Shown piece by piece: positions 40,175 to 64,000 of a stretch of 64,000 nucleotides of DNA. A model generated the notes under the pieces. It saw only the letters and a list, made by a program, of their open reading frames with translations. It did no database searches and had not been told where the DNA came from. The position numbers and the translations under genes were made by a program. The DNA comes from an uncultured Gammaproteobacteria bacterium (GTDB lineage: Bacteria; Patescibacteriota; Patescibacteriia; UBA9934): NCBI GenBank assembly GCA_964569575.1, contig CAZMTL010000001.1:3503-67502 (forward strand), written 5' to 3'. The stretch's first letter is position 1. Every line of letters starts with the position of its first letter.

Positions 40175-40543
40175 GTGACAAAGACTGCTGCTCCGGAGAT
40201 CAATGCTACTCAAGAGGCAATCAAGCACACGATGACGCATGCGCTGACCAATGGAGGGATCGACGAGTGGAACGAGCTCAGGTACGAGTACTCTCACATC
40301 AAGCTCGAGTTCTGCAACCACGATTTCTCAGGCCTGGACCTCCCCTTCCGGAACCTTTCGGGGTTGAATTTCTTCGGATCCAAGTTCTCAGGAACTGATC
40401 TCGACGGCGCTGATCTCACCGGCTGTACCGGCCTCACTGCTCACCAGCTCGCGCAGGCTCGCAATCTCGAGCATGCGTTGCTCGACCCCAATCGCTACGC
40501 GGATGCGGTGGCGGCGGGGTACAAGCGCGCTAACGAGAAGTGA
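40175..40543 (+). CDS. Pentapeptide-repeat protein (short), encoded by a GC-rich cassette
   Basis: GTG 40175 after GAAGGAG. A(D/N)LxG pentapeptide units. C-terminal tail RYADAVAAGYKRANEK is shared with the next gene. Confidence 0.65.
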   Translation: MTKTAAPEINATQEAIKHTMTHALTNGGIDEWNELRYEYSHIKLEFCNHDFSGLDLPFRNLSGLNFFGSKFSGTDLDGADLTGCTGLTAHQLAQARNLEHALLDPNRYADAVAAGYKRANEK

Positions 40544-40625
40544 ACTCTCTCGAGCGAGCGCGTCAAGGCGCGCTCGCTCGCTGACCCAGGTTTTCGGACC
40601 TGGGTCTTGCTTTTCCAAACCCAGC
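40544..40625 (+). terminator. Twin-hairpin 3' module (gagcgagcgcg..cgcgctcgctc and gacccaggttttcggacctgggtc), directly repeated after each pentapeptide gene
   Basis: Nearly identical copy at 41548..41630. Confidence 0.5.
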
Positions 40626-40725
40626 GAAACCTTGACTTTGTATTAATTTTCGTGCAGAATAATCAGTCGTTTTGGCAATGTGCTGAACGCGTTCACGGCC
40701 TTTCGGGGCAAAGGGGTCAGATACT

Positions 40726-41547
40726 ATGATGAAGGTTCAGATGGTCGCAATGCTGCGCAAGGGACGAATCGAGGAATGGGACGCATGGCGGACGGTGAAT
40801 CCGGGAGTGCGTATCGACCTTTCGATGACTGATCTCTCAGAGGCAAATCTCGAAGGGGTGAATCTGGCATCCGCAAACCTTAAAGGGGTGAATCTTAAAG
40901 GGGCAAACCTGAAGCGAGCGAACTTCTGGAAGGCGGATCTCGCAAGGGCGGATCTTCAGAACGCAAAGCTCTCAGATGCGTATCTCGGATCTGCAAACTT
41001 GTCGGGAGCCGATCTGCGAGAGGCAGATCTGACAGAAGCATATCTCTCACGAGCGAACTGCTGGAAGACGGATCTGCGGGGTGCAAATCTCTCGGACGCA
41101 TATCTCGAACGCACAAACCTCTCAGAAGCAGACCTACGTGGCGCACACCTTCACGCAGCAGTTATCGATGACGCGGATCTGTCGGGAGCGAATCTCGAAA
41201 AGGCCAACTGCGCGGATGCTGATTTCGAGGGCACGCATCTTTCGGGAGCAAACCTTCGTTCAGCGAACCTGTCGCATACAAATCTGTCGGCGACGGATCT
41301 CTCAGGAACGTGTCTCGCGGATGCGAACCTTCAAGATGCTGATCTTGCGGGAGCAGATCTTCGAGGGGCGATTCTGTCGGGAGCAGATCTTCGAGGGGCG
41401 ATTCTCTTGGCAGCCGACCTTTCAGCAGCAGTCCAACTGATCGCTGCCCAGCTTGCGCAAGCTGGAAACCTCGAGGACACCAACCTAGATCCTGACCTCT
41501 ACGCGGATGCGGTGGCGGCAGGGTACAAGCGCGCTGACGAGAAGTGA
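40726..41547 (+). CDS. Pentapeptide-repeat protein (273 aa, about 40 consecutive pentapeptide units), paralog of the upstream gene
   Basis: ANLxxADL repeats throughout. Same C-terminal tail and a conserved about-60-bp 5' leader (aatcagtcgttttggcaatgtg..gaac). Confidence 0.75.
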   Translation: MMKVQMVAMLRKGRIEEWDAWRTVNPGVRIDLSMTDLSEANLEGVNLASANLKGVNLKGANLKRANFWKADLARADLQNAKLSDAYLGSANLSGADLREADLTEAYLSRANCWKTDLRGANLSDAYLERTNLSEADLRGAHLHAAVIDDADLSGANLEKANCADADFEGTHLSGANLRSANLSHTNLSATDLSGTCLADANLQDADLAGADLRGAILSGADLRGAILLAADLSAAVQLIAAQLAQAGNLEDTNLDPDLYADAVAAGYKRADEK

Positions 41548-41739: not shown

Positions 41740-44700
41740 TTAGCTGCACCCTGATGTTGAACCGCAGTTCAAGCATTTGTAGCAGGCGGCGTTGCGGACC
41801 ATGATGGAACCGCAGGTGTCGCAGGCTGGGGCGTCAGCAGAGTTGTCAAAAGTGTTTGTAAGAGCCGCTTTTGCCTCTACTTGTTCAGCTACTTCTGGCT
41901 TTGCCTCGATTTTCTTCACAGGTTCGCTTTGGCTTGCTTGCGCAGACTGAGAAGGCTGAGGAACGATAGCTTCTTCCACCTCAATTCGATCGTCCAAGTC
42001 TTCTGTGTTCGCAGGTGCTGTGCCGTGGGTCATTTTGTTTTCACCTGTCACTTCCAAGTTGTTCAATCCTACTTTTGATTGATCTTCTGGTGAAAGGAAT
42101 TTGAGCGCCATCCATCGGAAGATGTAGTCGACGATTGATTTTGCCATTCGAATGTTTGGATTATTTGTAAATCCAGATGGTTCGAATCGCTTGTGAACGT
42201 ACTTGTTTACCAAGACTGGCAATGGAACTCCGTACTGCAATCCGATCGATACGGCTGTTGCAAAACTGTCCATCAAACCACTAATCACCGAACCTTCTTT
42301 TGCCATGGTGATAAAGATTTCTCCCGGCTTTCCGTCGTCGTACAATCCAACCGTTAGGTACCCTTTGTGACTCGCGATACTGAATCGGTGCGTAATCGAA
42401 CGTCGTTCGTCGGGCAAGCGTCGTCGTTGTGGAGCGCCAGCGTACGAAATTGTTTTTGTTGGAATCGACATTTGCACCTGTGTCTGTTCCGATAGACCCC
42501 TCCTAGCCTCCCCTTGTGAAGGGGAGGAAGCGCTCGCGAGTGGAGTTGCTTCTTTCTTCACTTCATCTTTCTTCGATGCGTCTTTTTCTTTTGATGTTGT
42601 AAGAGCTTGTTGTCGCTTTGAACCGTCGCGGTAGATCGCGATCGCTTTCAATCCCATCTTCCATCCTTCCATGTATACATGTTCTACGTCTTCTACCGTT
42701 GCTTCTTTTGGCATGTTTACCGTTTTACTAATTGCTCCCGAAATAAACGGTTGCACAGCGGCCATCATACGAACGTGTCCCATGTAGTGGATTGTTCGTG
42801 TTCCATTCTTTGCTTTGAACGCACAGTCGAATACCGACAAGTGTTCTTCGGAAATGTGTGGCGCACCTTCGATGGTGTCGTTTGCGTCGATGAATGCAAT
42901 GATCGCATCAACCTGTTCTTTCGTGTAGCCCAATCGTGCAAGTGCTTCTGGAACGGTTCCGTTGACGATCTTGAGCATACCACCGCCAACGAGCCATTTG
43001 TATTTTACGAGCGCGATGTCTGGTTCCACTCCTGTTGTGTCGCAGTCCATCAAGAATCCAATCGTTCCTGTTGGAGCAAGTACCGAAATTTGCGCGTTGC
43101 GAATTCCGTGCTTCACTCCCCCATCGATCACGTTGTCCCAAGATTTTCGGGCTTCGAACAACAGTTCCGCTGGAACACCGTTTGGATCGATTTCGTAGGC
43201 GGCCTTTCGGTGCATTTGCATTACTTCCATCATTGGTTCGGCGTTCTTTTTGAATCCAGCGAATGGACCAATTTTTTCTGCCGCTTTTGTTGATTGGAAG
43301 TAGCTTTGACCAGATAGCAATGCCATGATCGCTCCTGCCATGTTTCGACCTTCGTCTGAATCGTAGGCAACTCCTCGGCTCATCAAAAGTGCTCCTAGGT
43401 TTGCGAATCCGATTCCAAGCGGTCGGTAATCGTGGCTGTTCTTTTCGATTGCTGGTGTTGGGTAACTAGAATTTCCAACAAGGATTTCCATCGCTGTAAT
43501 CACGACTTCAGCAGCCTTTTTGAATGCTTCAACGTCAAATTCCATCACGCCGTTTACTTCCTTTCGGTACTTCATCAAGTTGAGTGAAGCCAAGTTACAT
43601 GCCGAGTCGTCTAGGAACATGTATTCCGAACACGGGTTCGATCCGTTGATGCGATCGGTGTTTTTACTTGTGTGCCAATTATTGATGGTTGTGTCGTACT
43701 GAATTCCAGGATCTCCACATTCCCATGCCGATTGCGCCATTTCGCGGAACAATTCTTTTGCATCGTATTCAACCGACGGGTTTCCTGTTGTTACTTCCTT
43801 TGTTGTCCATCGCGCGCCGTTTTCCACCGCCTTCATAAATTCGTCGCTTACGCGTACCGAATTGTTTGCGTTTTGGAAGAAGATTGAGCTGTATGCTTCT
43901 CCGTCCATCGAAGAATCGTATCCAGCGTCAACAAGTGCCCATGCCTTCTTTTCTTCTCTTACTTTACAGTGAATGAATTCCAAAATATCTGGGTGATCGA
44001 TATTTAGCATCACCATCTTTGCCGCACGTCGTGTTTTTCCGCCTGACTTTACCGTTCCAGCGAATGCGTCAAATCCTTTCATGAACGAAACTGGTCCGGA
44101 TGATTTGTTGTTCGATCCACCGATAAATTCTTTACTTGAACGGAGTTTTGAGAGGTTTGACCCTGTACCTGATCCGCCCTTGAAAAGCATGCTTTCTGTT
44201 GTGGCAAGTTGCATGATTGAACGCATGTCGTCTTCCACGGCGTTGATGAAGCAGGCTGAACACTGTGGATGTGGTTCTGTTCCTAGGTTGAACCAAACTG
44301 GACTGTTGAATGCTGCGTATTGGTTGATCAAAATGAAAGTCAATTCTTCTTCGAACGTTGTTGCGCTGCGAGCGTCTTGGAAGTATCCATCTTTTCGTCC
44401 CCATTGCGCGATTGTTTGCGCCACGCGGTCGATCAATTGCTTCATCGATGTTTCGCGATCTGCATCGCCTACTTTTCCTCGGAAGTATTTTTGAGCCACG
44501 ATGTTTGTGGCAGTTTGCGACCACGTTTTTGGTGTTTCGATGTTGTTTTGTTCAAAAATGACCGCGTTCTTTTCGTTGGTAATTTTTGCTGTACGCATTT
44601 CCCATTCAATCTTCTTGTACGGGTGAATCCCTTCTTCGGTAAAATATCGGTCGAATACCAATCCCTTTCCGTACTTTGGTTCGGCTGTTGTAGAAGGTGC

Positions 44701-45048
44701 CAACTGCTGACGGAATGAAGAATACTTTTTCGCCACGTGCGTTAAGTTGTTGTCGATCAATGTCATCGAAACAACTTCTCGCACATCGGCACTGCTTGGT
44801 TCGGTGTGACCGTTGTAAATACGGTGCAAGCGATCGCCGACCTGTTCGGTAATTTTGCGGGCGCGGTCTTGCTCTCGCATGCCGGCAATTTCCATCGCCT
44901 TCACGACCGAAGCGTGCAGTTTGTCGTACTGAAATGATTGCGATTCACCATTTCGTTTTTTGATGCTTTTTACAGCAGTCATGTAATCCCACACAATGTC
45001 ACCGACGTTGCCGGTTTTTTGTTGTGTGTTTGTTGCGGACTGGTTCAT
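41740..45048 (-). CDS. nrdJ: Ribonucleotide reductase, monomeric class II (adenosylcobalamin-dependent, NrdJ-like) with N-terminal ATP-cone and C-terminal zinc ribbon
   Basis: 1102 aa. ATP-cone VKSIKKRNGESQSFQYDKL, active-site NPCSEYMFLDDSACNLASLNL, C-terminal CDTCGS...CYKCLNCGS. An in-frame repeat-derived segment SPSQGEARRGL sits in a linker. Confidence 0.8.
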   Translation of the reverse strand: MNQSATNTQQKTGNVGDIVWDYMTAVKSIKKRNGESQSFQYDKLHASVVKAMEIAGMREQDRARKITEQVGDRLHRIYNGHTEPSSADVREVVSMTLIDNNLTHVAKKYSSFRQQLAPSTTAEPKYGKGLVFDRYFTEEGIHPYKKIEWEMRTAKITNEKNAVIFEQNNIETPKTWSQTATNIVAQKYFRGKVGDADRETSMKQLIDRVAQTIAQWGRKDGYFQDARSATTFEEELTFILINQYAAFNSPVWFNLGTEPHPQCSACFINAVEDDMRSIMQLATTESMLFKGGSGTGSNLSKLRSSKEFIGGSNNKSSGPVSFMKGFDAFAGTVKSGGKTRRAAKMVMLNIDHPDILEFIHCKVREEKKAWALVDAGYDSSMDGEAYSSIFFQNANNSVRVSDEFMKAVENGARWTTKEVTTGNPSVEYDAKELFREMAQSAWECGDPGIQYDTTINNWHTSKNTDRINGSNPCSEYMFLDDSACNLASLNLMKYRKEVNGVMEFDVEAFKKAAEVVITAMEILVGNSSYPTPAIEKNSHDYRPLGIGFANLGALLMSRGVAYDSDEGRNMAGAIMALLSGQSYFQSTKAAEKIGPFAGFKKNAEPMMEVMQMHRKAAYEIDPNGVPAELLFEARKSWDNVIDGGVKHGIRNAQISVLAPTGTIGFLMDCDTTGVEPDIALVKYKWLVGGGMLKIVNGTVPEALARLGYTKEQVDAIIAFIDANDTIEGAPHISEEHLSVFDCAFKAKNGTRTIHYMGHVRMMAAVQPFISGAISKTVNMPKEATVEDVEHVYMEGWKMGLKAIAIYRDGSKRQQALTTSKEKDASKKDEVKKEATPLASASSPSQGEARRGLSEQTQVQMSIPTKTISYAGAPQRRRLPDERRSITHRFSIASHKGYLTVGLYDDGKPGEIFITMAKEGSVISGLMDSFATAVSIGLQYGVPLPVLVNKYVHKRFEPSGFTNNPNIRMAKSIVDYIFRWMALKFLSPEDQSKVGLNNLEVTGENKMTHGTAPANTEDLDDRIEVEEAIVPQPSQSAQASQSEPVKKIEAKPEVAEQVEAKAALTNTFDNSADAPACDTCGSIMVRNAACYKCLNCGSTSGCS

Positions 45049-45209
45049 AGCCTAGAAGAATTTTATTAATAAAAGGTCTGGTGAAGAATGCTCTCCAAAA
45101 AGGTGCTATCGCTTTTTTTGCGATTAAAAAGATCCCTTCCTTTGGGATCCCACTGATCGAACCTGGTCTAACATGTACGTTAGGGCGAGTTCTCACTCTT
45201 TCGAGCGCA

Positions 45210-45257
45210 ACACAAGATGTTGTGTTGATGACTACATTGTAGCACAAGATGTTGTGT
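45210..45257 (-). promoter_or_regulatory. Two NrdR-box-like 16-bp palindromes (acacaacatcttgtgY on the minus strand), 32 bp centre-to-centre, about 160-210 bp upstream of nrdJ
   Basis: ACACAAGATGTTGTGT at 45210..45225 and GCACAAGATGTTGTGT at 45242..45257. ACAC-N8-GTGT geometry and tandem spacing match NrdR operators. Confidence 0.5.
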
Positions 45258-45299
45258 TTGGTTTTGGGTTTTGTGGATAAAATTTCTGTAACTTTTTTT

Positions 45300-45840
45300 G
45301 GCGAGAGTTGGCGCTGAAACAAAAGAGCCCCCTCGGAACACATCGGCAGGCGAACCTGCAAATGTGCCCGAGAGGGCGAGAGACCAGTGTATCTGTGCCG
45401 CCCCGTTGTTCTTCGCCTGGTCGGTATCGTGCGAAGAGGGCTCTGGTTGGCGGTGTCATGCGGAGGAAAACCAGAAAATCTTTTCCGCATGGTGACGCTG
45501 TTTACGGGTCACTCCGTTTGCCACCTGGTTCTCCCAGGGCTGGTTGGCTGTATTCGTGGTCTTCGTACTTGTGAACTACCAGCATTCACAAGCATATAGC
45601 GTCCTATTTCCCGGTCCGCGCAGGTCTGGTTGTTTTTTTACTTTTCCGCCTACTGGAGTACCAGCACTTCCTAGGCGCACCGACCAACAATTCACGGTGT
45701 CGGGACGTGGTCTCTCGATCTCGAGCTCGAGTCTGGGTGACTCTTTTCGTGCGGGCTTTACCAGTTTCATCCCCGCATATATCGACCAAACTCCTGGGTC
45801 GAACAGGTGTCCACCGCATCAACTATAGCGGCATGGACCG
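45300..45840 (-). ncRNA. Candidate structured non-coding RNA of about 540 nt (GC-rich, no ORF, own promoter); identity unknown
   Basis: Minus-strand promoter TTGACG-17-TACATT at + coordinates 45873..45845. No ORF over 95 aa with coding character. Many GNRA-type GAAA loops and a UUCG loop (GGCAGGUUCGCCUGCC), with stem-forming complementarity. Confidence 0.25.
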
Positions 45841-45965
45841 AAAGAATGTACTACATTTTTAACCGGTCGTCAAGTGCGAAGCCTACTTTCGCCTTGAATT
45901 ACTTGGCTTTTCTTGCGTAAATCAAATAGGCCCTATAGGTCGAATATGACCTATGGGACCTATTT

Positions 45966-47021
45966 TTACTCTTCTCGTAAATCCAGTTCTTCTAATAACT
46001 TTTTCTGCGCTTTCGATAGCTTCTTTGGGGTTTGTACTTTTAACACAACGTATTGATCGCCGCGCCAGCTGCCTTCTGGGACTCCTTTGCCTTTCATGCG
46101 TAGGCGGTCGCCGGATTGCGACCCTGCGGGGATTTTTAGTTTTACTAGGCCGTCGACGGTATCTACCTGTACTTCGTCACCAAGTGCCGCTTGTGTGAAG
46201 CCGATGGTTTTCTTTACGTAAATGTCTTTTCCGTCGCGCTGGAATCGTGGGTCGCTCTTTACATGCAGCTGCAAGAACAAATCCCCCGACTCGCCGCCGC
46301 GTCCAATCGATTCCCCTTCACCGCGCACACGGATGCGCATGCCGTCTTCTACTCCTGCCGGGATGTCGATGCGTAACGTCTTTTTTCCGTATGTAAATCC
46401 GTCGCCGTCACAATCTTTACATTTCGTTTCCGGAATTTCGCCTGCGCCGTTGCAGTCTTCACAATTCACGCGCGTCTGCATGTTTCCTAACATGGTGCGT
46501 GCAATTTTCACCTGGTAACCCTGTCCTTTACACGTGTCACACGTCTTCATGCTCGACCCAGGTTCTGCACCGATTCCTGCACATCGTTCGCAAGCGTTGT
46601 TTTTGCTAAGTGACACTTCTTTTTCCACGCCGAAGATGGATTCGTTGAACGTAAGTTGAACATCGATCAACGCATCGCCTCCACGCGGAGCTCGCGCACC
46701 GCCTCCGCCACCGAAACCACTTCCAAACATGCTGCCAAAAATATCACCCAAATCCTCGAAGTGCATTCCCTGCCCTCCAAATCCACCAAATCCACCCGCT
46801 CCCGGACCAGCGCCGTCGAATGTTTGCCCGTACTGGTCGTACTGCTTCCGTTTCGTTTCATCACCAAGCACCTGGTAGGCTTCATTCACCTCCTTAAACT
46901 TCGCTTCGTCTCCACCCTTGTCCGGATGAAACTGATGCGCTTTCGCTCGAAACGCTTTTTTGATTTCGTCCTTCGACGCAGATTTGTCGACGCCTAGTGT
47001 GTTGTAATAGTCTTTGGGCAT
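45966..47021 (-). CDS. dnaJ: Chaperone DnaJ (J domain, G/F region, four CxxCxGxG zinc-finger repeats)
   Basis: 351 aa. DYYNTLGV...HPDK, then [32 protein letters not shown]. Confidence 0.9.
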
Positions 47022-47022
47022 A

Positions 47023-47469
47023 TTAAATAAAATTTTTGAGCAGTATAATAAAACTACCTAACAATACAAAGATTCCTGATATTCCTGAAATAGATATGGC
47101 AATTATCTTGTTACGTCCCTCCTCTACCAAACTAACTGCGATAATGATTGAAATTATTAATAACGTGCATCCGAACAAAAACATACACATAGTAAATCCG
47201 ACTAATGCGCCTATCCCTGAGTCGATAGAAGCTAGCGCACCTATTCCTATACCTAACAAGGATATTATTAAAGCAGTTCGTATTTCGACCGCACTCACCA
47301 TTGTAACTATTTCTTTTTTATAATCTTTAAAGTCATTTTTAGATTCTTCCCGCTCTTTTTTTATCTCTTCTCTTAACTCTTTATACCTATCCATCACCGT
47401 ATTAGTAATTACGCTTCCAGTCGTTCCTGTTTCTTCCTTCACACCACTTGAAAAGATAGGAGTACTCAT
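47023..47469 (-). CDS. Hypothetical membrane protein, AT-rich
   Basis: 148 aa with 3 TM helices. GC is lower than the neighbours. Confidence 0.4.
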
Positions 47470-47471
47470 AA

Positions 47472-47852
47472 CTAAGCTTGTCCGACATCTAGAATCGCTA
47501 TATTATCAATCTTCTCTTGACCAAATTGAATGTTGAACCTATATCTTCCTACTTGATCAAAATTAAACTCAAATCCAAAGTAAAAATTCGCATCGCCCTT
47601 CCCATTAGTCATTTCAGGAATACTTCCATCCAATTCTCCCAACCGCCTCTCCTCTCCGGCGGGATTCTGAACAAAAAAAATCGCTCTGTTCTTTCCAGAT
47701 GGCAAGTTATTTAATTTACATACCAAGAATAGCTTCATCGTTGAGACACCGGTTAATGCCCCAATTACATCAACAAAAGACTGCTGTGGTGTGCCAAGGC
47801 CTCCTATCCATTGGCAAAGTAATCCGTATTGTTTCTCGATATTATTTTTCAT
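47472..47852 (-). CDS. Hypothetical protein, AT-rich
   Basis: 126 aa. Adjacent to the previous gene and likely co-transcribed with it. No known motif. Confidence 0.4.
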   Translation of the reverse strand: MKNNIEKQYGLLCQWIGGLGTPQQSFVDVIGALTGVSTMKLFLVCKLNNLPSGKNRAIFFVQNPAGEERRLGELDGSIPEMTNGKGDANFYFGFEFNFDQVGRYRFNIQFGQEKIDNIAILDVGQA

Positions 47853-48187
47853 ATTTTTGCCCTTCCCCCTTCACCACCTTCGCGCGGGCGTCGATTACTT
47901 TTTTCTTGGATTTGCCTACGATCTTTCCCCAGATCCAGTCGCGTACTCGTGGAATCGAAAGGATCCAGAGGAGTCCGGAGAGGAGTGCGAGGAAGCCGCG
48001 GACGAAGAGGGCGAAGAGTTTTTTCATAGAGGAATGGTTGGTGATTTTCTTTCATTATCGCACAGAATCACATTCTGCACATGTCACCGTAGGCGAAGCG
48101 AATAGATCCCCGGCACTAAAGGCCGGGCAGGCTTTCACTTTGTTCAGGATGACAAGGTGAGGCGTGTTGAGTTGAATCGCGATGCCG

Positions 48188-48270
48188 CGACCCCCTGTCG
48201 TCCCCCTTGGTAAGGGGGACACAGGCTTGCGGCGTTTCCTCCCCTTACCAAGGGGAGGCTAGGAGGGGTC
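48188..48270. repeat. Palindromic repeat family A (twin hairpins cccccttggtaaggggg and cctccccttaccaaggggagg)
   Basis: A near-identical inverted copy lies at 56809..56893. A half-copy sits inside nrdJ at 42495..42543. ORF 48207..48473 is a translation artefact (SPYQGEARRGL). Confidence 0.7.
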
Positions 48271-48312
48271 TTCTTGGAGAAAATGTTCGCAAGAGTCTGC
48301 ATTGCGCAAACC

Positions 48313-50205
48313 TTATTTCTCGTCGTCCTTCTTTACTTCTTCGAATTCTGCATCTTTTGTTCCTTCGTCTTTCTTTTCTTCACCACCGGCTGCTGCGGCT
48401 TGTTGTTCTTGTTGGTAGATTTTTGCGCCTACAGCTTGAGCGGCTTGCGAGAGTTCTTCTGACGCTTTTTTGATGGCTTCGATGTCGTCGCCGTCTTTTA
48501 GCTTTTTAAGAGCTTCTACTTTTTCCTCGATTGGTTTCTTTTCTTCGTCGGTGATTTTGTCCTTATGTTCTGTGAACATTTTTTCTACGGTGTACACCAT
48601 GGTGTCGGCCGTGTTTCGGACTTCGATCATTTCGCGCTTCTTCTTATCTTCTTCTGCGTGTGTTTCGGCGTCCTGTTTCATCTTTTCGATTTCATCTTTT
48701 GAAAGTCCAGATGACGCGGTGATCGTAATCTTTTGTTCCTTGTTCGTTCCCTTGTCCTTTGCTTTTACGTTTAGGATTCCGTTTGCGTCGATGTCGAAAC
48801 TTACTTCGATTTGCGGAACTCCGCGTGGAGCTGGTGGGATTCCAGTTAGGCTGAATTGTCCGAGTAGTTTGTTGTCGGCCGCCATTTCGCGTTCACCTTG
48901 GAAGACTTTGATGTCTACCGAAGGCTGGTTGTCGGCTGCAGTTGAGAAGACTTGAGATTTCGACGCTGGGATTGTTGTGTTCTTTTCGATCAACTTGGTC
49001 ATAATTCCTCCCATCGTTTCGATTCCGAACGAAAGCGGAGTTACGTCCAAAAGAAGAACGTCCTTTACGTCACCTTGAAGTACTCCGGCCTGAACAGCGG
49101 CACCAAGCGCCACTACTTCGTCTGGGTTTACCGTTACGTTTGGCTTTTTGCCGAAAAATTCTTCTACTTTCTTCTGGATCAATGGCATTCGGGTCATTCC
49201 TCCTACCATCACGATTTCTTCGATCGCTTTCGATTCTAGCTTCGCATCTTTCAATGCCTGTCGTACTGGGCCAAATGTTTTTTCTACCAACGGCATCACC
49301 AATTCTTCCAACTTCGCTCGTGTCAATTTCATCACCAAGTGCTTTGGACCTTCTGCGCCCGAAGTGATGAACGGTTGGTTGATTTCTGTTTCTTGAGCCG
49401 TTGAAAGTTCGATTTTTGCGCGTTCTGCTGCGTCCTTAATTCGTTGAAGCGCAAGAGAATCTTTGCTCAAATCCACGCCTTCGAGGTTTTTGAATTCGGT
49501 AATAATCCAGTCGATCACCACTTTGTCGAAGTCGTCTCCTCCAAGGTGCGTGTCACCGTGCGTTGAAATTACTTCTACCGTGTTATCTGAAACGTCGAGC
49601 ACAGACACGTCGAATGTTCCTCCTCCTAGATCGTACACAAGAATTTGCTGACCGGCTTTCTTTTCGAATCCGTACGCAAGTGCTGCCGCCGTAGGTTCGT
49701 TAATAATTCGAAGAACCTTTAGTCCTGCGATTTCACCTGCGTCTTTTGTTGCTTGGCGTTGTGCGTCGTCGAAGTAAGCTGGAACGGTAATGACCGCTTC
49801 GGTAATTGTTTCACCTAGCTTTTCTTCGGCGTCTGCTTTCATCTTTTGCAACACCATCGCGCCGATCTGCTGTGGAGTGAATTCTTCACCACCCATTTTT
49901 ACCGCTACACCTTCACCGCGTTTGATGATTTCGTACGGCATCAATTTTACGTCTTCGGTAACTTCGTCATCTTCAAAACGTCGGCCGATAAGTCGTTTTA
50001 CTGAATAAAGAGTGTCTTTTGGATTCGTAACCGCCTGTCGCTTTGCTGGAAGTCCAACAAGGCGTTCACCTGTTTTTGAAGTCGAAATCATCGAAGGAGT
50101 TGTTCGGTTTCCTTCCTTGTTTTCGATAATCTTCGGCGATCCACCCTCCATAATCGCCATCGCACTGTTTGTTGTTCCTAAATCGATTCCTAGAATTTTT
50201 GCCAT
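48313..50205 (-). CDS. dnaK: Chaperone DnaK (Hsp70)
   Basis: 630 aa. Motifs [27 protein letters not shown], plus the C-terminal acidic EEVD-like tail. Confidence 0.95.
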
Positions 50206-50225
50206 ATGATTAGTTTAAGTTTATT

Positions 50226-50287
50226 TGGTCATTGCGAGGAGTGCTGCGACGAAGCAATCTTTTACTTCGCTGCGCTCGCAATGACGG
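50226..50287. repeat. Palindromic repeat family C copy (ggtcattgcgaggagtgctgcgacgaagcaatc ... ctcgcaatgac)
   Basis: Same orientation as 39984..40076. Lies between dnaK and grpE. Confidence 0.65.
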
Positions 50288-50300
50288 ATTGAAATGAAGT

Positions 50301-50843
50301 CTAAGCTTTACTCACCACCACCTTCGCTGGACGGATAACTAGGTCGCCCATTTTCCAGCCGGATTGCATTACTTTTATGATGGAACCTGGTTCTTTTGAT
50401 TCGTCTTGTTCTTCGCTGACCGCTTCGTGTTGAAGTGGGTCGAGCTTGCCAGCTGTTTCGATTGGTTCGATGCCTAGCGAGGCAAAAACTTCTTCAAATT
50501 GTTTTTTGATGAATGTAACGCCCATCATCCAGTTGTCGAACTTTTTCTGATCTTCTTCTGCAAGCGTCACTGCTGGTGTGTGGTGAACGGCTTGTTCGAA
50601 GTTGTCGGCGACTGGGAGAAGCTGGTGCGCGAGCCCGATTTTGATTCGGTTGCGATCTTGTTCTTTTTCGTTCGCCAAGTTTTTCTTCAAGTTTTCGTAG
50701 TCCGCAAGCGCGCGCTTCCATCCGCCTAGGTATTCATCACATTTCTCTTCCAGCGTTGGTTCTTTTGCCACTTCTTCTCGAGCGTCTTCGGGCGGTTGCG
50801 TGATTGATTCTTTTTCTTCGTTGTTTACATCGTCTTTTTTCAT
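50301..50843 (-). CDS. grpE: Nucleotide exchange factor GrpE
   Basis: 180 aa. Coiled-coil N-terminus. C-terminal ..[10 protein letters not shown]..., ..[24 protein letters not shown] pattern. Confidence 0.85.
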
Positions 50844-51550
50844 ATCATTCTTGATTCAAGCATTTCCCTTGCATCGGAAAGCAGTTTTATATTTTTTGCG
50901 TAGTTCATGCGCTGTGGGCCCAGGAAGCCGATCACTCCCGGAACGTTTTTTGGACTTGTGTAGCGCATCATCACCGTTGCCATTGCGTCGCCGAATGGGT
51001 TTTCGCTTCCGATCCAGACGTGGATTTGGTTGTCCATGCGACTGCGGAAGGTTTTGATCGCTTCGTCGAATTGATCGATCGTGGCCGACAGCGCGCGCAT
51101 CGATTCGACGTCGCCGAATTCCGGCTTGGAGAACAGTGTGGAAACGCCAGTGTAGTAATGCCAGCCGTCTTCTTGTGTTACGAACGCCGCATCGCCGGAC
51201 AGCTTCACCATGCTTTTCGTCATGGCTCGCAGGAAATCTTTGAACTGATCTGTTTGTGGTGCAATTTGCTTAATGGTGAGCCGGACTCGAACGCGTGGAG
51301 CTTCTTTTTTTCGGACAAAGCGATCGAGATAATACCTGTACCCTTCTTCGGTTGGAATGCGTCCAGCGGATGTATGTGGCTGACGAAGCAATCCCGTTTC
51401 TTCTAATACGGCCATGTCGTTTCGCACCGTTGCGGGTGAAACATCGATGCCGTATTTTTCGACCAATATTTTGGACGAAACCGGTTGAGCTGTTTCGACA
51501 TATTCTTGCACAATGGCTGCCAGAATACGTTCTTGCCTTGGGTTTAACAT
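50840..51550 (-). CDS. hrcA: Heat-inducible transcription repressor HrcA (short form)
   Basis: 236 aa. N-terminal w[67 protein letters not shown]. Overlaps the grpE start by 4 nt. A CIRCE element lies upstream. Confidence 0.75.
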
Positions 51551-51611: not shown

Positions 51612-51928
51612 TTTTGATTCGTCAAGAGTCTAAAAAGGGTTGTGAGTGGATGGTTTTTGAAGAGCTGGAATTTTGAGGGGTTGAGGCCTGTGTTACGCAG
51701 AATAGTGCTTACGCTTGAGTTACTTATTCCGTCATCCCGGACTCGATCCTGGATCCATCGGTCTTCACTTTCGCTTCCCCCTCCTTTTCAAGGAGGGGTT
51801 AGGGGTGGTTACGCGCTGTTTGAGCGCAATCTTGAGCGCATATTGTGGTTGACTTTTTATCTAAAATCTGTTACTCTTTTCTGTTTCCGGACGGCCTTGA
51901 AATGGTGATTTCCCGGAAAGGAGGAGAT

Positions 51929-52399
51929 ATGGTTCAGACCACTGTTCGTAACCCGCTTGTGACTGCCGTCACGAACAAGCTGCTTCGAATCGTCGAGATT
52001 CGTGAAGACAATCGAGGACACGAAAAGATCGAGGTCCTATGGCGATATCTCGGCACAAGTCGTCACGATCGAGAGCAGCTCGCCGGGCTCGGCCTGATCA
52101 TCGAGGGATCGTGCCTGATGGTGCGGCTTCCGCCAAGGCCGGGTGCCTACGAGGGGTGGAACGGTGACGAATTCATCTTGACTCGTCTTTCGCTCCCGCT
52201 CGAGCGCGCCGTGACTTCGAGTGGCGGAGCAACCTTCCTCCACACCTACTGCCCGCAGAACGATTCCCGTGCCATCAATGCTCGGCTTCCGCGGGGAGTG
52301 GCCCGATTGGTTCAGCCGGATCGTCAGGAATTCGAGATCCGCAACATCGAGTGGCAAGGGCTTCCGCGAAGCGCCGCTGACCTGGGGTTGCGGCGCTAG
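51929..52399 (+). CDS. Hypothetical protein encoded by a GC-rich cassette
   Basis: ATG 51929 after AAAGGAGGAG, with TTGACT-17-TACTCT upstream. ORF track 51845..52399. High GC3. No known domain. Confidence 0.45.
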   Translation: MVQTTVRNPLVTAVTNKLLRIVEIREDNRGHEKIEVLWRYLGTSRHDREQLAGLGLIIEGSCLMVRLPPRPGAYEGWNGDEFILTRLSLPLERAVTSSGGATFLHTYCPQNDSRAINARLPRGVARLVQPDRQEFEIRNIEWQGLPRSAADLGLRR

Positions 52400-52492
52400 A
52401 TGACTGGATATTTCAGAACAGGGCACGCGCGAGGGGCTTGGAAACAAGCCCCTCTTTTTGTATCGAAAAAAGAGCCCGCAGGCTCTTTTTTG

Positions 52493-56689: not shown

Positions 56690-57240
56690 TTAATTGTTGT
56701 AAGTATAACACAATTGATTTTTGTAATGCGATGCTCGCCGTCGCGTGTTGTACTTGGATGGTCGTTGGTTGTATTGATGAAGAAAAGTGGATCGCTGTTT
56801 TTCGAGAAGACCCCTCCTAGCCTCCCATTGGTAAGGGGAGGAAGCGCTGCAGGCTCGTGTCCCCCTTACCAAGGGGGACGACAGGGGGTCGCGTGACGCA
56901 TTCGCGTTCGATTATCGCGGAACCTCCCCTCCGTCCTTCGCTAAAGCTTCGGAGGACCCACCCGTAGCCTTGGCGAAGGAGGGGAAGCGCGTTTTGATCT
57001 TCGCCGAGAGATCTCTCCACTTCGCTCGGCTTCGCCTCACTTCGGTCGAGATGGTGATGTTTTAATTATGTTCCTACTACTTAGAGCATCTTTTTTTCTT
57101 ACCATCTCGACCGAACGAAGTGAGCGGAGAGATCTCTCGTGTGCGCTCGAAGCGAAATAAGCGATGGATCCCGGGTCGGGGCCCGGGATGACGGAGATGA
57201 TAGAGGCGCGTCGTGAGTAGGGATTGTTAGATCATTCGAG
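56690..57240. repeat. 550-bp cluster of nested palindromic repeats (families A, D and B plus a large inverted repeat 57030..57135)
   Basis: The family A copy at 56809..56893 is inverted relative to 48188..48270. Family D cgccgagagatctctc occurs twice, 56995-57025 and 57116-57140. Family B is at 57166..57192. Confidence 0.7.
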
Positions 57241-57293
57241 TCACTATATATCAAAACAAAAGACCCGCTCCTGAGAGCGGGTCGTGGGTTGCG

Positions 57294-57902
57294 TTACAGG
57301 GGTACGCATGGGTGCCTCGGTGAGAAGAAGATCATGCCCGTTCGGCGTGTAATCTTCCCTTCTGGTGGGCCGAAGGACTGACCTGGGTACAGGTAGGCTA
57401 CCTGTACAAGCCAACCTTCGTTCGAAAAACTGACGCGATAACCGATCGTGACCGTGCTGGTCGGATTGACCGGCTCCTTCACTTCGTCCGTTCGAAACAT
57501 GAGTGCTTGCGCGCTCCAGAACGGATTCGATTCCATCAACTCCCGATTCTTGAAGACGCCTTCCCGCAGGTACGTCGCGAGATCGAACGGCACCGTTCCG
57601 TGTCGAGGTACCGCCATCGGCCACCCCACCGGATGATCAAATGCCATCTCGATCTCTGCCCTTGCCGCGTGACGCTTCGCGTTGTCAGCGAGCGTTGCGT
57701 CGATCACCTTCTGCACGTGTCGCAGCAACTTGCCGAGCACGGCTTCGGACTCGAGCATTCCCATTACCGAACGCCACTTGGTGATTCGTCCCGGTCCCGG
57801 CCCTTCCATGCTGAACACGGCATTGGCCAGCCATCGACGAAGTTCTTCGCCGACAGCGATTACCACCGGAGCACCGTCCGGCAAACGCGTGATGACGGGC
57901 AT
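57294..57902 (-). CDS. Hypothetical 202-aa protein, second gene of a GC-rich two-gene operon
   Basis: ATG preceded by GGAGG 5 nt upstream, 19 nt after the stop of 57922..58215. A terminator hairpin gacccgctcctgagagcgggtc lies at about 57250..57275. High GC3. Confidence 0.45.
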   Translation of the reverse strand: MPVITRLPDGAPVVIAVGEELRRWLANAVFSMEGPGPGRITKWRSVMGMLESEAVLGKLLRHVQKVIDATLADNAKRHAARAEIEMAFDHPVGWPMAVPRHGTVPFDLATYLREGVFKNRELMESNPFWSAQALMFRTDEVKEPVNPTSTVTIGYRVSFSNEGWLVQVAYLYPGQSFGPPEGKITRRTGMIFFSPRHPCVPL

Positions 57903-57921
57903 GCCGCCTCCATTGCACTTG

Positions 57922-58215
57922 CTAGTGCTCGGTGTAGAGTTCTACTTCCCTACGGTCACTTGGAAAATCCCAGGCGCCGGTGTCGCAGAAGATGTGTACG
58001 CTGTAGCTCTGTGCTTCGGTGAAGACCTTCACCATCTCGAAGAGCACGCTGTACACCTCCAGAACTCGCAACAAGTCAGCCTTCGAGACCTGCACCTCGA
58101 GCACAAATATTCCTACCTTCACCGCCCACTTCACACTCAGACTCTCCGGCTCGTTGATCAGACAGCTGAGCATCTCATGAACCGATGCGATTTGTTCTGG
58201 CCGTGGTGCATTCAT
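57922..58215 (-). CDS. Hypothetical 97-aa protein, first gene of a GC-rich two-gene operon
   Basis: ATG preceded by AAAGGAGAAGCA and a TTGACA-17-TAGAAA promoter (minus strand, about 58230..58260). Confidence 0.4.
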   Translation of the reverse strand: MNAPRPEQIASVHEMLSCLINEPESLSVKWAVKVGIFVLEVQVSKADLLRVLEVYSVLFEMVKVFTEAQSYSVHIFCDTGAWDFPSDRREVELYTEH

Positions 58216-58298
58216 TGCTTCTCCTTTGACGACCGCTATTTCTACCAGTTCACACGGTTTTTGTCAATCAAAAATCCACCGGTAAGGGTGGATTTTTG

Positions 58299-59273
58299 CT
58301 ACTTATCAATACACGTACCTAGTAGCTCCGCAGATGGATATTGCTTTATGTGCCATTCACTTTCCGAAATTCGATCGCCCATGAATAGCAACTGATAGAT
58401 GTTTCCTGCCCGCAGTTCTTCAATCGTCGTCTGAACCTTGTCTTTATTTTCAAAACGGCATGTTCCTTCGTCTTTTTCGTAACTTCTATCATTTACGAAA
58501 TAATGCAGAAGGTACGCATCACCGTCTTTCTCGGTCGAGATATCTATGACTTGCTGGTAGCCGCTAGTTACTGAATTATCTATCTTTCCAGAAATCATTT
58601 GATCAACTTCTACAGCGCTATAAAAGCACTCCGTGTCCTGTTCGCAGTTCATCAACGTTTCGCTTACAGGTATTGATCCCAAATTCGTATTTGTGATCCC
58701 TAATCCCTTTGCACGCATTAGTTCGTACGCGTCCTGAGCGCGACCCAAGTAATAGCGACGATTGTCTTCGGGATTTACCCACCAAGCTTCTCCGCGGCTT
58801 TCGACTTGAAGGAAAATTTTTCCAGATTGCTGACGAGCGAATGAATGGTCGAATTTTGATCGCTGTGCTTGAACGAGTGGATTGTAGTCGTTTTGAACTT
58901 CGACGCCGTCGTTGTAACCATCGTTATCGCTATCTGAATCATTTGGATTTGTTCCGATCGCCTGTTCCATCGCGTCAGTTAAGCCATCATTGTCCGCATC
59001 CCAGTTACTTAATTTATAGTAGCCGATTGGGATCCGTTCTAAATTTGCATTTGTGATTCCGACTCCTTGTCCGCGCATAATTTGATACGCGCTGTCTGCT
59101 CGGTAAAGAAAGTGACGTTCTTTTGTTTCGGGATTTACGTACCAAGCTTCACCGTTCTGCTCGACCTGAAGCAAGATCTTTCCCGCAACGTTGTCGCGCA
59201 CCGAAGCGGCTTGCGCATTAGCAAACGGCACGAGTGCGGAGGCAATTAATAAAACGGCGGCTACTTTTTTCAT
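58299..59273 (-). CDS. Secreted repeat protein, paralog of 252..1286 (two GKILLQVE..GEAW(Y/W)VNP...YYL domains separated by TSP3-like DxDxDG repeats, plus a Cys-containing C-terminal domain)
   Basis: Signal peptide MKKVAAVLLIASALVPFANAQA. The same domain order as the left-edge gene. Confidence 0.65.
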   Translation of the reverse strand: MKKVAAVLLIASALVPFANAQAASVRDNVAGKILLQVEQNGEAWYVNPETKERHFLYRADSAYQIMRGQGVGITNANLERIPIGYYKLSNWDADNDGLTDAMEQAIGTNPNDSDSDNDGYNDGVEVQNDYNPLVQAQRSKFDHSFARQQSGKIFLQVESRGEAWWVNPEDNRRYYLGRAQDAYELMRAKGLGITNTNLGSIPVSETLMNCEQDTECFYSAVEVDQMISGKIDNSVTSGYQQVIDISTEKDGDAYLLHYFVNDRSYEKDEGTCRFENKDKVQTTIEELRAGNIYQLLFMGDRISESEWHIKQYPSAELLGTCIDK

Positions 59274-59401: not shown

Positions 59402-59966
59402 CTAGGGTTCGGACGCTTCGTTCAGCTTCAGCCCGAACTGGTGCAGGAAGTAGAAGACTTCGTCACACTCTGCCTTCGGCATGTTGCGGGAGGTGAGGTC
59501 CCACTCGCGCGCGTTGAGCAGATCGGCCATCGTGCTGATGCCGAACTCGATCAGTCGTGCGTGCGCGGATGTGCTCAACGTGCAGCGCGGGCGCAGGCTG
59601 GAGTCCCGCAGAACTTCCAGGATGGTCTTGGTTCGCAGGTCGGCGATGCGCGAGGCGCTTGGCACTCCGCTCTTCCATCCCATGATCTGCATCACTGGGC
59701 ACAGCTCGGTGACCGCCTTCAGCACTTCGGGCGTGTTCGGCAGGTAGAAGATGTGCTCGACGCGCTGCGTTCGTCCTTGTGGCGTGTGGACCATGATCAC
59801 GTCCGCGAACCGTGACGGATCGTCGTCGCGAATGCGTCCCTCGATGATGGCATGCCGCTCCTGTCGGTAGGCCAGGTCGGCAACAAGACGGTACGCAGCA
59901 GACTGTTCATCCACTTGATCGGTGTGGCAACCGTGGTATCCATCGACGTAAAACGTCCACTTGATC
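59402..59966 (-). CDS. Hypothetical protein encoded by a GC-rich cassette, with a C-terminal RNA-polymerase-alpha-CTD-like HhH domain
   Basis: ORF 59402..60127 trimmed to ATG 59966 (MIKWTFYVDGY), which has AGGAGG upstream and a TTGACC-17-TAGAGT promoter. C-terminal LSTSAHARLIEFGISTMADLLNAREWDLTSRNMPKAECDEVFYFLHQFGLKL. Confidence 0.45.
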
Positions 59967-60129
59967 ATGTCGTCCTCCTGTCGCAAGCGACAATTGACTC
60001 TAGCGAATTTACTCAAGCCGGTCAAACGAAAGAGCATTCTAATTGTAATCGCATTCAGCTTTTTCGCCTGTATTTTCCCGTTGACACTCCCCTCTTTTTC
60101 CCCTATTCTATCGACACAATTCGCCACAC

Positions 60130-60204
60130 GGTCCCATCGTCTAACGGTTAGGACGCCAGGTTCTCATCCTGGTAATCGGGGTTCGATTCCCCGTGGGATC
60201 ACCA
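60130..60204 (+). tRNA. tRNA-Glu (anticodon CUC)
   Basis: Cloverleaf read by hand. Acceptor GGTCCCA/TGGGATC, D-arm GTC..GAC, anticodon stem CCAGG/CCTGG with loop TTCTCAT, T-arm CGGGG-TTCGATT-CCCCG, discriminator A, encoded CCA. A terminator-like hairpin lies at 60209..60234. Confidence 0.85.
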
Positions 60205-61918: not shown

Positions 61919-62101
61919 ACATATCTAGTCTATCATCTCTTTGCCCGAGTCTCTATATCTCTGCATTGGCATCGCGTCAGTGCTGTGCAAGAGCCAGCCC
62001 TGTTTGTTTACTTCAGTCATAAATCCCTTCCAACCAAATTCCAAACAAAGAACCGCCCCACAAGAGGCGCCGAGGGGCGGTTCGTGGTGGCGGTTGAGTT
62101 G

Positions 62102-62434
62102 TTACGTTTGGCCGTGCGTCTGTGTGGCCTTCAGGAAGAGTTCGCGGGTCTTTCCCACGAACGGCGCGTCTTGGAACGAGGCGTGCTTTGGCCACGGGAT
62201 TGCGATCAGGCCAATCAGCCAGCTGCGCTCGCTTTCGCTCGAGGTCGCGTAGCGCTCTTCGAGCTCGTGCGCGTACTGGCTTCGGAATTCAGGCCGCATG
62301 CGCGAATCCACAACGATCCAGAGCAGCACATGCATGTAGAATTGATAGTCTGAGTCGACCATCTCTTCGACCAACTCGGTGTAGTTGGGATGTTCGCCAA
62401 CAAATCGCTCATCAACGGAATAATCCAGCATCAC
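62102..62434 (-). CDS. Hypothetical 110-aa protein, GC-rich cassette
   Basis: ATG after AGGATAGGTG. Divergent from the 62615 gene, with a shared TTGACA-containing intergenic region. Terminator hairpin gaaccgcccc...ggggcggttc at 62049..62085. Confidence 0.4.
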   Translation of the reverse strand: MMLDYSVDERFVGEHPNYTELVEEMVDSDYQFYMHVLLWIVVDSRMRPEFRSQYAHELEERYATSSESERSWLIGLIAIPWPKHASFQDAPFVGKTRELFLKATQTHGQT

Positions 62435-62614
62435 CTATCCTTGCATGTTAGTCATTCAGCACGACGACTCACAATATCACGATTTAAGTATTTGTCAATT
62501 TAGCTCAGCTTAACTCCGCCCCCCCCCTGCGACATTGACAAAGCGCTCAAAAATGGCTATTATTCGCGCCGAATGGTGACGATTTTGTTGCCTTCTGAAC
62601 GCCCGAGGTTCTTC

Positions 62615-63079: not shown

Positions 63080-63273
63080 CTCACACACCCACGACACAAG
63101 AGCCACTCAGCTTTTGCCTCGCCGGGTGTGTTCTTGTTTTTATTAAATAAGCTTGTTTTAAGGCTTTTGGCTTGATTTTTCTTTCAAACTGTGTTAGTCT
63201 GTGATGTTGGCTTTTTTGGTGGTTCGCTTGGTTTATTGATGGTAAATCGCGCGAAACACCGTAGGAGTCACTC

Positions 63274-63804: not shown

Positions 63805-63899
63805 CGCGCACTCGCGCGGCAAAGAGCACTCGCTCTCGCCGCTCGGGTGCTTCTTTGTTTTTACTCTACATTCTTCGCAACATTTGCTACACTTTTTGC

Positions 63900-64000
63900 A
63901 TGACACAGGTGATCGCGACTATTTGGAAGAAACCGTACAATGCCGAAAAGAACCAAGCGATGATCGATGCTGGGGTGAATGTTTTTCGTATTAAGTGTTC
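63900..64000 (+). CDS. pyk: Pyruvate kinase, N-terminal fragment; the gene runs off the right edge
   Basis: ATG 63900. MTQVIATIWKKPYNAEKNQAMIDAGVNVFRIK resembles the PK N-terminus (KIVATIGP...L..AGMNVARLNFSHG). Confidence 0.4.
   Translation, partial: MTQVIATIWKKPYNAEKNQAMIDAGVNVFRIKC

Follow-up and report, generated by a model that had tools for sequence, protein, structure and literature searches.

The CsrB/RsmZ-type decoy RNAs carry many A(N)GGA motifs in their hairpin loops and linkers and have CsrA/RsmA as their partner. Two other kinds of repetitive transcripts are the tandem riboswitch aptamers (e.g., the glycine riboswitch), in which two homologous structured units per transcript are followed by a terminator, and the ToxI-type repeats, in which near-identical units of ~36 nt lie directly upstream of a toxin gene. 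Here, we describe an element that shares features with all of these. It is located on contig CAZMTL010000001.1 (assembly GCA_964569575.1) of a member of the Patescibacteria, from which we analyzed a stretch of 64,000 nt (i.e., the window; all coordinates without a locus label refer to it). The core of the element (positions 45316 to 45838, minus strand) lies in the 917-nt gap between nrdJ and dnaJ. We consider it, with a probability of about one-half, to be a lineage-specific, independently transcribed, structured modular RNA of a new family, seen in one genome.

The ROOL, GOLLD, and OLE RNAs are several hundred nucleotides long and multi-branched, with a G+C content above that of their surroundings and without a known function. 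They are reported to form homo-oligomeric complexes (PMC12286853). TIGR arrays occur in genomes of the candidate phyla radiation (CPR), end with a rho-independent terminator, and contain short UG and CCA box motifs. Their units (~36 nt) hold two 8- to 12-nt spacers, each located between a box C (CCA-type) and a box D (UG-type), and one variant consists of tandem hairpins with variable palindromic stems (PMC12045711).

By analogy, the element most resembles, in its possible function, the multi-hairpin decoy or scaffold RNAs such as CsrB/RsmZ. Like these, it appears to be a stand-alone transcript of a few hundred nucleotides with its own promoter and terminator, and its repeated stem-loops have variable stems and present one short motif in loops and linkers. 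However, the motif is CUGGU rather than A(N)GGA, and no Rfam CsrB/Rsm model matches the element. In addition, the motif in its linkers does not repeat the one in its loops but is complementary to it, a relation that suggests pairing of RNA with RNA rather than a single protein site. The size, predicted branching, elevated G+C content, and lack of a known function are features in common with ROOL, GOLLD, and OLE, but those RNAs are widespread and defined by covariation, whereas the element is a singleton that matches none of their Rfam models and is not located in a phage or mobile element. Oligomerization through the complementary exposed motifs would be possible in principle, but this is pure conjecture by analogy. 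With the TIGR stem-loop arrays, the element shares its presence in Patescibacteria, tandem hairpins with variable stems, UG/CCA-type motifs, and a terminator; the two differ in that its motifs are 15 to 74 nt apart, its loops are 6 to 16 nt long, and its modules have a period of 82 to 108 nt. Unlike the tandem riboswitches, it contains no downstream open reading frame (ORF) within the unit, extends 160 nt from its second repeat to the terminator, precedes a gene (nrdJ) that has its own promoter, and matches no riboswitch family in Rfam. The type III toxin-antitoxin RNA ToxI is likewise a non-coding tandem-repeat transcript with its own promoter and terminator, but the units of the element are longer (~80 to 95 nt) and strongly diverged, and no toxin gene is found downstream.

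Motifs, boundaries, and predicted fold of the element

The pentamers CTGGT and ACCAG each occur five times within positions 45387 to 45764, and their total of 10 compares with 1.23 ± 1.08 expected from dinucleotide-preserving shuffles of the unit (0 of 3000 reached this number). When the maximum over all pentamer pairs was considered, only 1 of the 3000 shuffles reached 10. The same pentamers are ordinary elsewhere (113 in 64 kb), and none of seven control regions exhibited a comparable enrichment. With one additional C allowed (i.e., ACC(C)AG), there are seven sites of the second motif, three of which have the context CAACCAG. Along the minus strand, ACC(C)AG and CUGGU alternate for five cycles, with a CUGGU every 82 to 108 nt and with distances of 15 to 74 nt between sites. 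Four of the five CUGGU copies are placed atop hairpins whose stems are unrelated to one another (GCGGG/CCCGC, GGAAGU/ACUCC, CUUGUGAA/UUCACAAG, and AUGCGGA/UCCGCAU; hairpins H1 to H4 in Table 1), while the fifth lies within one arm of a long-range helix. The ACC(C)AG copies are found in linkers or in the loops of other hairpins. A search within the window for target sites complementary to the loops returned nothing informative.

Two parts of the element (i.e., U1 and U2; 76 and 86 nt) are paralogous. Their local alignment score is 42, compared with 20.3 ± 3.1 for dinucleotide shuffles, of which 0 of 1000 reached 42. The blocks common to both units are ACCUG, UAUAUGC, CUGGUA, CACGAA, and CA-CCAG. 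Between hairpins H1 and H3, which the two units carry, the basal UGC/GYA is kept, two G-C pairs have become U-A with changes on both sides, and five pairs have been gained. These compensatory changes were read from the local alignment of U1 and U2; MAFFT/RNAalifold misaligned the hairpin. The pattern fits selection on the hairpin together with its loop and, being drawn from one paralogous pair, is suggestive.

The block is bracketed exactly by a promoter and a strong terminator on the same strand. The initial annotation had reported a minus-strand promoter TTGACG-17-TACATT, and this sigma-70-type sequence is present ~50 nt past the dnaJ terminator, with a predicted transcription start near 45838. 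A similar promoter (TTGACA-17-TACATT), with the same -10 hexamer, precedes a G+C-rich gene at the equivalent site of a relative (L114, described below). At the other end, the full terminator stem has a pairing probability near 1 in the predicted fold. The U tract of the dnaJ terminator is interrupted on the minus strand. As for the GNRA-like and UUCG loops that had been called abundant, a UUCG tetraloop on the terminator stem and one GAGAA loop are indeed present, but such loops do not distinguish the region.

The same annotation had placed the segment between the nrdJ operator region and dnaJ, where the core does lie, and had given its G+C content as about 55 to 58%; the core has 55%, and the highest value in a 200-nt interval is 58.5% (45300 to 45499), compared with 47% for the 64-kb window. 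It had also stated that codon bias is lacking. In agreement, the period-3 power of the whole unit is 0.47 (median over the 64 kb, 4.2), and the value of 0.28 for the 522-nt segment starting at 45401 is the lowest of 635 segments across the 64 kb. We also used 180-nt sub-windows, in which periodicity between frameshifts would still show; the median of the element is 1.00, compared with 2.05 to 4.8 for genes of the window and 4.8 to 7.1 for G+C-rich genes in the equivalent slot of relatives. All other G+C-rich islands of the window have coding-like period-3 values (i.e., 2.1 to 15).

The statement that there is no credible ORF and that all are under 95 amino acids (aa) holds for ORFs wholly inside the region, which reach at most 94 aa, overlap one another, and occur in all six frames. 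It overlooked a 163-aa ORF (44999 to 45490, minus strand) that extends into the element and has been called as a protein both in the public record (as a singleton cluster) and in a separate assembly. This ORF runs across the terminator, the nrdJ promoter with its DnaA box and its pair of NrdR boxes, and the start codon of nrdJ. It is therefore not credible and is almost certainly a false gene call. None of the open frames of the element matched Pfam, PHROGs, or NCBIfam, and an 80-aa minus-strand frame had no match among 1.84 billion representative proteins. Searches by tblastn with the slot proteins of relatives and with a 163- to 167-aa membrane protein that follows dnaJ in relatives found nothing credible in the element. 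One plus-strand tblastn match (E value, 0.005 in a 1-kb database) was rejected as chance, being short, opposite to dnaJ, and unsupported in a search of the whole window. A 936-aa query made of the six joined frames returned nothing from 5.8 billion proteins; this is a weak negative, given that the search missed even the identical annotated 163-aa ORF. In such word-indexed searches, the candidate list seems to become saturated when a long query is joined from several frames, which makes the negatives untrustworthy. The element very probably does not code for protein.

The minimum free energy (MFE) of the minus strand is -199 kcal/mol, with a z-score of -3.25 (100 shuffles; plus strand, -2.55). 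With the predicted transcript ends (40 shuffles), the z-scores are -4.14 for the minus strand and -3.35 for the plus strand. The former is the most negative of 40 strand-segments, in which the background, composed of 19 other 523-nt segments of the window on both strands, has a z-score of -0.09 ± 1.30 and a minimum of -3.6. In the predicted fold, a long-range helix closes a multi-branched domain of ~320 nt; several well-formed hairpins and the terminator complete the structure. The helix (15 nt, 87% complementary) is found in both the MFE and the centroid structures. Hairpin H2 is an alternative fold that we read from the sequence; in the MFE structure its CUGGU is partly paired (unpaired probability, 0.43). 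The loop side of H4 can form an alternative 10- to 11-bp pairing with GGAGAACCAGG (45534 to 45524), with an energy of -15.7 kcal/mol.

The initial annotation had found by eye no match to RNase P, tmRNA, SRP RNA, or a cobalamin riboswitch, and Rfam 15 detected none of these. The covariance model search, which had been set beforehand as the test against a novel RNA, matched no Rfam 15 family to the element; at the gathering thresholds, the only match in the whole 64 kb is a tRNA-Glu at 60130. In addition to the four classes above, the families covered include 6S, ROOL, GOLLD, OLE, raiA, CsrB/Rsm, and group I/II introns. With permissive filters and an E value of ≤10, the interval 44900 to 46100 yielded five chance-level matches to snoRNA or small RNA families (highest score, 20.3 bits; threshold, 63). 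Of these, four are located at or beyond the borders of the element, and the remaining one (sR35; 12.6 bits; E value, 3.7) is inside but on the opposite strand. ARAGORN found no tRNA or tmRNA in the element and only the tRNA-Glu (60130 to 60204) in the window. A sensitive blastn search of phage and plasmid collections with the element gave just one 31-nt chance match, and a 28-base pattern built from the conserved blocks of U1 and U2 had no match in viral contigs. The borders carry no terminal inverted repeats, and the window holds no second copy, although either might be expected of a mobile element or a miniature inverted-repeat transposable element. An IS110 bridge RNA, an omega-RNA, a type III antitoxin, a replication origin, and an integron attC site were also considered and were ruled out by spacing, context, or the absence of a partner.

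Another ORF-free stretch of the window (56690 to 57260, minus strand; ~560 nt; ~55% G+C) has period-3 values of 0.57 to 0.64 and a folding z-score of -6.12, which is stronger than that of the element. It is located between the terminator of a 202-aa ORF (57283 to 57262) and the promoter of a gene for a 108-aa membrane protein. It is rich in long imperfect hairpins (e.g., nested ones at 57005 to 57139, whose arms of 17 and 15 nt are perfect or nearly so), has no Rfam match, and shows no similarity to the element at 45316 to 45838.

Table 1. Coordinates of the element and of the signals on either side of it, in the order of the minus strand
Feature	Position	Strand	Details
Bidirectional terminator hairpin ending the dnaK-dnaJ operon	45924-45965	both	18-nt arms, 89% complementary
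Sigma-70-type promoter TTGACG-17-TACATT	45873-45845	minus	-35 at 45873-45868, -10 at 45850-45845
Predicted transcript, ~520 nt	45316-45838	minus	55% G+C; no credible ORF; no codon periodicity
Repeat unit U1, 76 nt	45733-45808	minus	ACCUG, small hairpin, UAUAUGC, H1 (CUGGUA loop), then CACGAAAAGAGUCACCCAG
ACC(C)AG sites, first four of seven	45799-45794, 45738-45733, 45630-45626, 45544-45540	minus	
Hairpin H1	45750-45777	minus	UGCGGG/CCCGCA stem; 16-nt loop with CUGGU 45764-45760, unpaired probability 0.93
Long-range helix, 5' arm GAGAUCGAGAGACCA	45708-45722	minus	Pairs with 45372-45386
Hairpin H2	45649-45675	minus	CCUAGGAAGU/ACUCCAGUAGG stem with bulge; CUGGU 45664-45660 in apical loop
Repeat unit U2, 86 nt, paralogue of U1	45540-45625	minus	Carries H3
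Hairpin H3	45566-45594	minus	11-bp stem (8 consecutive Watson-Crick pairs); 7-nt loop GCUGGUA, unpaired probability 0.99
ACC(C)AG sites, last three of seven	45529-45525, 45447-45443, 45421-45417	minus	
Hairpin H4	45458-45490	minus	AUGCGGA/UCCGCAU outer stem, GGAAAA/UUUUCC inner stem; CUGGU 45474-45470 at loop
Long-range helix, 3' arm CACUGGUCUCUCGCC	45372-45386	minus	Holds the fifth CUGGU; pairs with 45708-45722
Intrinsic terminator	45316-45377	minus	~21-bp hairpin 45377-45325, UUCG loop, then CUCUUUUGUUUC (U tract)
nrdJ control region (context, outside the element)	45210-45280	minus	Downstream limit of the element
DnaA box TTATCCACA, perfect	45280-45272	minus	In the nrdJ control region
Two NrdR-type boxes around the -10	45257-45243 and 45225-45210	minus	In the nrdJ control region
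-10 TACAAT of the nrdJ control region	45241-45236	minus	

Relatives and the slot upstream of nrdJ

The gene downstream of the element, nrdJ (41740 to 45048), encodes a class II ribonucleotide reductase (Pfam Ribonuc_red_lgC, B12-type N domain, and ATP-cone), and the gene upstream, dnaJ (45966 to 47021), is the last gene of the hrcA-grpE-dnaK-...-dnaJ cluster. Both are on the minus strand, which carries all genes from 41740 to 51550, so that gene orientation does not switch at the element. The dnaJ terminator hairpin sets the upstream limit of the element. The best relatives by DnaJ and NrdJ are named Uhrbacteria (Patescibacteria/CPR), and the nearest ones are 70 to 75% identical. The element is identical in sequence in a separate (Logan) assembly of run SRR15237806, which argues against a one-off assembly error, although that run may represent the same sample.

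We collected DnaJ-anchored loci from one genome per species (44 loci) and from JGI metagenomes (60 loci) and searched them with the element by blastn and nhmmer, which recovered the identical Logan contig and nothing else. Closer relatives were obtained by a search of 5.8 billion proteins (DnaJ, 70 to 72% identity; NrdJ, 74 to 75% identity), and the element is missing from all ten of their contigs that were compared. The nucleotide searches with the element thus covered the loci of relatives, phages, and plasmids, with viral contigs searched by pattern only, and we use the term orphan to mean absent from the syntenic loci of the nearest sampled relatives rather than from all public data. A cluster of the motifs at one locus (L063) proved to be chance, since it fell within coding sequence and a tRNA.

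Five relatives share the nrdJ control region (nhmmer E values of 8.5e-11 to 2e-4), and all five have the exact DnaA box. Immediately upstream of this region, three of them (L112, L113, and L115) carry a gene for a 58-aa membrane peptide. The slot also holds a lipoprotein gene in L113 (60 to 66% G+C) and a secreted-protein gene in L114 (65 to 72% G+C). Each of these slot genes has a TTGACA-17-TAxAxT promoter and a hairpin terminator. Because the relatives carry other small units there, the site upstream of the nrdJ control region is, as judged from these sequences, a variable slot, and the element in it is lineage specific. The relatives have in addition a conserved membrane protein of 163 to 167 aa after dnaJ, which has no homolog in the window.

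Several observations on the neighborhood were made during this comparison. The DnaA box TTATCCACA and the two NrdR-type boxes are found upstream of nrdJ at L112 3805, L113 3802, L114 3715, L115 343, and L116 1990. We take these to be DnaA and NrdR boxes on the basis of the published consensus sequences, and their conservation suggests that DnaA and NrdR jointly control the B12-dependent ribonucleotide reductase of this lineage. The single-pass membrane peptide gene (55 to 58 aa; L112 3575 to 3751, L113 2751 to 2918, and L115 114 to 290) has its own strong promoter and terminator and is absent from the window. The membrane protein after dnaJ (L106 1579 to 2070, L107 6085 to 6579, L109 6164 to 6667, and L117 1750 to 2253) is multi-pass, belongs to no Pfam family, and occurs in relatives with a G+C content of 39 to 55%; in the window, nrdJ takes its place and synteny is broken. 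A second variable slot is the gap between dnaK and dnaJ, which in the window contains two small ORFs of low G+C content (47023 to 47852; 34 to 39%) and in relatives contains differing small genes (DUF3467, DUF559, GIY-YIG, and unnamed ones).

On the other side of nrdJ, two G+C-rich pentapeptide-repeat genes (40175 to 41547, plus strand) lie between nrdJ and a gene for a NUDIX-CobA fusion. In relatives, nrdJ and the fusion gene are adjacent or are separated by other small genes, and the pentapeptide-repeat genes look like an insertion. Six further G+C-rich islands (1670 to 2213, 14400 to 15842, 51845 to 52447, 57294 to 58395, 59402 to 60127, and 61985 to 63906) have a G+C content of 53 to 61%, compared with 47% for the window. 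These exhibit coding periodicity, have no Pfam match, and may represent accessory genes that were acquired; in several of them, both strands carry long ORFs.

Competing explanations

In the reading to which we give about even odds, RNA polymerase would pass from the dnaJ side toward nrdJ, starting at TTGACG-17-TACATT shortly after the dnaJ terminator, and would stop at the ~21-bp hairpin and U tract just upstream of the nrdJ promoter with its DnaA and NrdR boxes. The RNA is predicted to fold into a multi-branched body closed by the long-range helix GAGAGACCA/UGGUCUCUC and would comprise about five modules of ~95 nt, each with a CUGGU (four of them in hairpin loops) and a complementary ACC(C)AG in a nearby linker or loop. 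If the pentamers pair in cis, the RNA would be compacted by pseudoknots between loops and linkers or by kissing loops; if they pair in trans, they could link RNA copies to one another. The folded RNA may then act as a scaffold or a decoy for a partner. We infer the transcription of the element, the pentamer pairing, and any cellular role from the features described above. A bolder version, in which the element would be the first representative of a new class of large RNAs in Patescibacteria and five complementary pentamer pairs would draw it into a pseudoknot chain or, in trans, link copies into a homo-oligomer, is unlikely. The initial proposal of a large noncoding RNA gains partial support from the promoter and terminator, the best z-score among the segments compared, the pentamers, and the internal duplication. 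The element is seen in one genome, and a remnant that is transcribed without having a function is a less probable alternative.

Several points weigh against a structured RNA gene. The element has no homolog in 118 loci of relatives other than the identical Logan contig, and it is absent from the six genomes closest by NrdJ or DnaJ (70 to 75% identity); with no ortholog, neither cross-species covariation nor conservation speaks for it. Only the U1/U2 pair is statistically supported as a repeat, further copies of the unit do not rise above noise, and H2 and H4 are tied to the pattern by their loop motif alone. Hairpins with CUGGU in the loop are also common by chance under lenient criteria. The promoter matches 9 of 12 positions, and neither promoter-like sites (2, compared with 1.1 in shuffles) nor terminator-like sites (4, compared with 1.7) are enriched; the value of these signals is in their placement and not in their frequency. 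The z-score alone is not decisive, as one background segment (17500 to 18022), which runs from the end of one gene across 100 nt of intergenic DNA into the beginning of a divergent gene, has values of -3.2 and -3.6 on its two strands, and the terminator hairpin supplies part of the folding energy of the element. The fold also leaves the strand undecided, since the plus strand reaches -3.35 with a nearly equal MFE, and the G-U pairs and mirrored structures do not settle it either. The assignment to the minus strand is due to the promoter and terminator.

The element might instead be the functionless leftover of a decayed G+C-rich accessory cassette, of which the promoter and terminator survive and any transcript would be noise. 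We regard this main rival as doubtful, although it draws its strongest argument from the slot itself, in which relatives hold differing small genes with a promoter and a terminator, and although the element is an orphan in a window with several other G+C-rich islands. Decay would have had to remove every residue of period-3 signal, even in 180-nt sub-windows, where the slot genes of relatives are strongly periodic, and to erase all resemblance to these genes and to known protein families. The degraded pseudogene that the initial annotation had offered as an option is doubtful on these same grounds. Decay of this depth would be expected to wear down the promoter and the 21-bp terminator stem as well, and decay yields neither the tenfold excess of the pentamer pair nor a duplication that preserves a hairpin, nor a folding stability at the extreme of the window. 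The further option of another inserted G+C-rich cassette fits in position, which is the variable slot of relatives, but not in kind: since the other islands show coding periodicity, the element is not one more cassette of the same type. An element that works on double-stranded DNA (i.e., an array of CTGGT/ACCAG protein sites or the relic of a mobile G+C-rich insert) is improbable. It would account for five pentamers per orientation within ~400 bp and for the nearly equal folding of both strands, and it would suit a site that adjoins the DnaA/NrdR box region and at which synteny with relatives is broken. However, the site distances of 15 to 74 bp exhibit neither helical phasing nor iteron-like regularity, and the contexts differ by orientation (GCUGGUA compared with CAACCAG), which better fits roles in pairing. 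The lack of terminal inverted repeats, of a second copy in the window, of a phage or plasmid match, of an adjacent recombinase or transposase gene, and of a switch in gene orientation likewise speaks against this reading.

A long cis-regulatory RNA, either an nrdJ leader with a regulated attenuator, in which U1 and U2 might for example bind a ligand in tandem, or a 3' extension of the dnaK-dnaJ transcript, is more improbable still. The shared orientation with both neighbors, the two homologous units of ~80 nt with two hairpins each (as in tandem riboswitches), the competing helix at H4 (-15.7 kcal/mol), which hints at alternative conformations, and the interrupted minus-strand U tract of the dnaJ terminator would all agree with it. 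Against it, nrdJ has its own conserved promoter downstream of the terminator of the element and lacks such a leader in five relatives, the repeats end ~160 nt before the terminator with no obvious expression platform, and no Rfam riboswitch family, cobalamin classes included, is matched. It is very unlikely that the region serves to encode a small protein or several of them, be it from the minus-strand ORFs of 64 and 72 aa, the plus-strand ORF of 94 aa, or the annotated ORF of 163 aa. Its frames are unusually open in all six phases and gene callers did call the 163-aa ORF, but a G+C content of 55% would by itself lead to open frames, no period-3 signal is present, and the 64-aa and 72-aa ORFs have no ribosome-binding site at a working distance. 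The products would be rich in Arg, Lys, Pro, and Thr without matching any family, and the longest of the ORFs crosses the terminator and the promoter and start codon of nrdJ. The least probable account, to which we give very little weight, is that the element represents a guide-RNA array like the stem-loop variant of TIGR or some other RNA that works with a nuclease or recombinase. Arrays with a terminator and UG/CCA boxes are known in CPR (PMC12045711), and CUGGU and ACCAG contain UG and CCA. Nevertheless, the CCA-to-UG distances of 15 to 74 nt are not those of 8- to 12-nt spacers, loops of 6 to 16 nt are too short for two spacers, and the period is ~95 nt instead of 36 nt. A scan of 20 ORFs of the window revealed no Nop domain, the mark of a Tas protein; the neighbors of the element are dnaJ and nrdJ, with no Tas gene beside it, and no IS110, IscB, or TnpB gene is nearby.

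Significance for Patescibacteria

Patescibacteria have small genomes, for which, to our knowledge, few noncoding RNAs other than the universal ones have been reported, and a literature search found no survey of their noncoding RNAs. The retention of a 520-nt RNA-only gene in such a small genome would imply a function worth its cost. Were the element a decayed cassette, it would document a variable insertion slot beside a conserved, DnaA/NrdR-controlled nrdJ promoter, which is of local interest. As a structured RNA, its alternating complementary pentamers provide a concrete hypothesis of tertiary or quaternary pairing that is testable by mutation. Large structured bacterial RNAs without a known function are few, and several of them had unexpected architectures (PMC12286853). 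An ornate, self-associating RNA at this locus, if true, would be the first of its kind in an ultra-small symbiotic bacterium.

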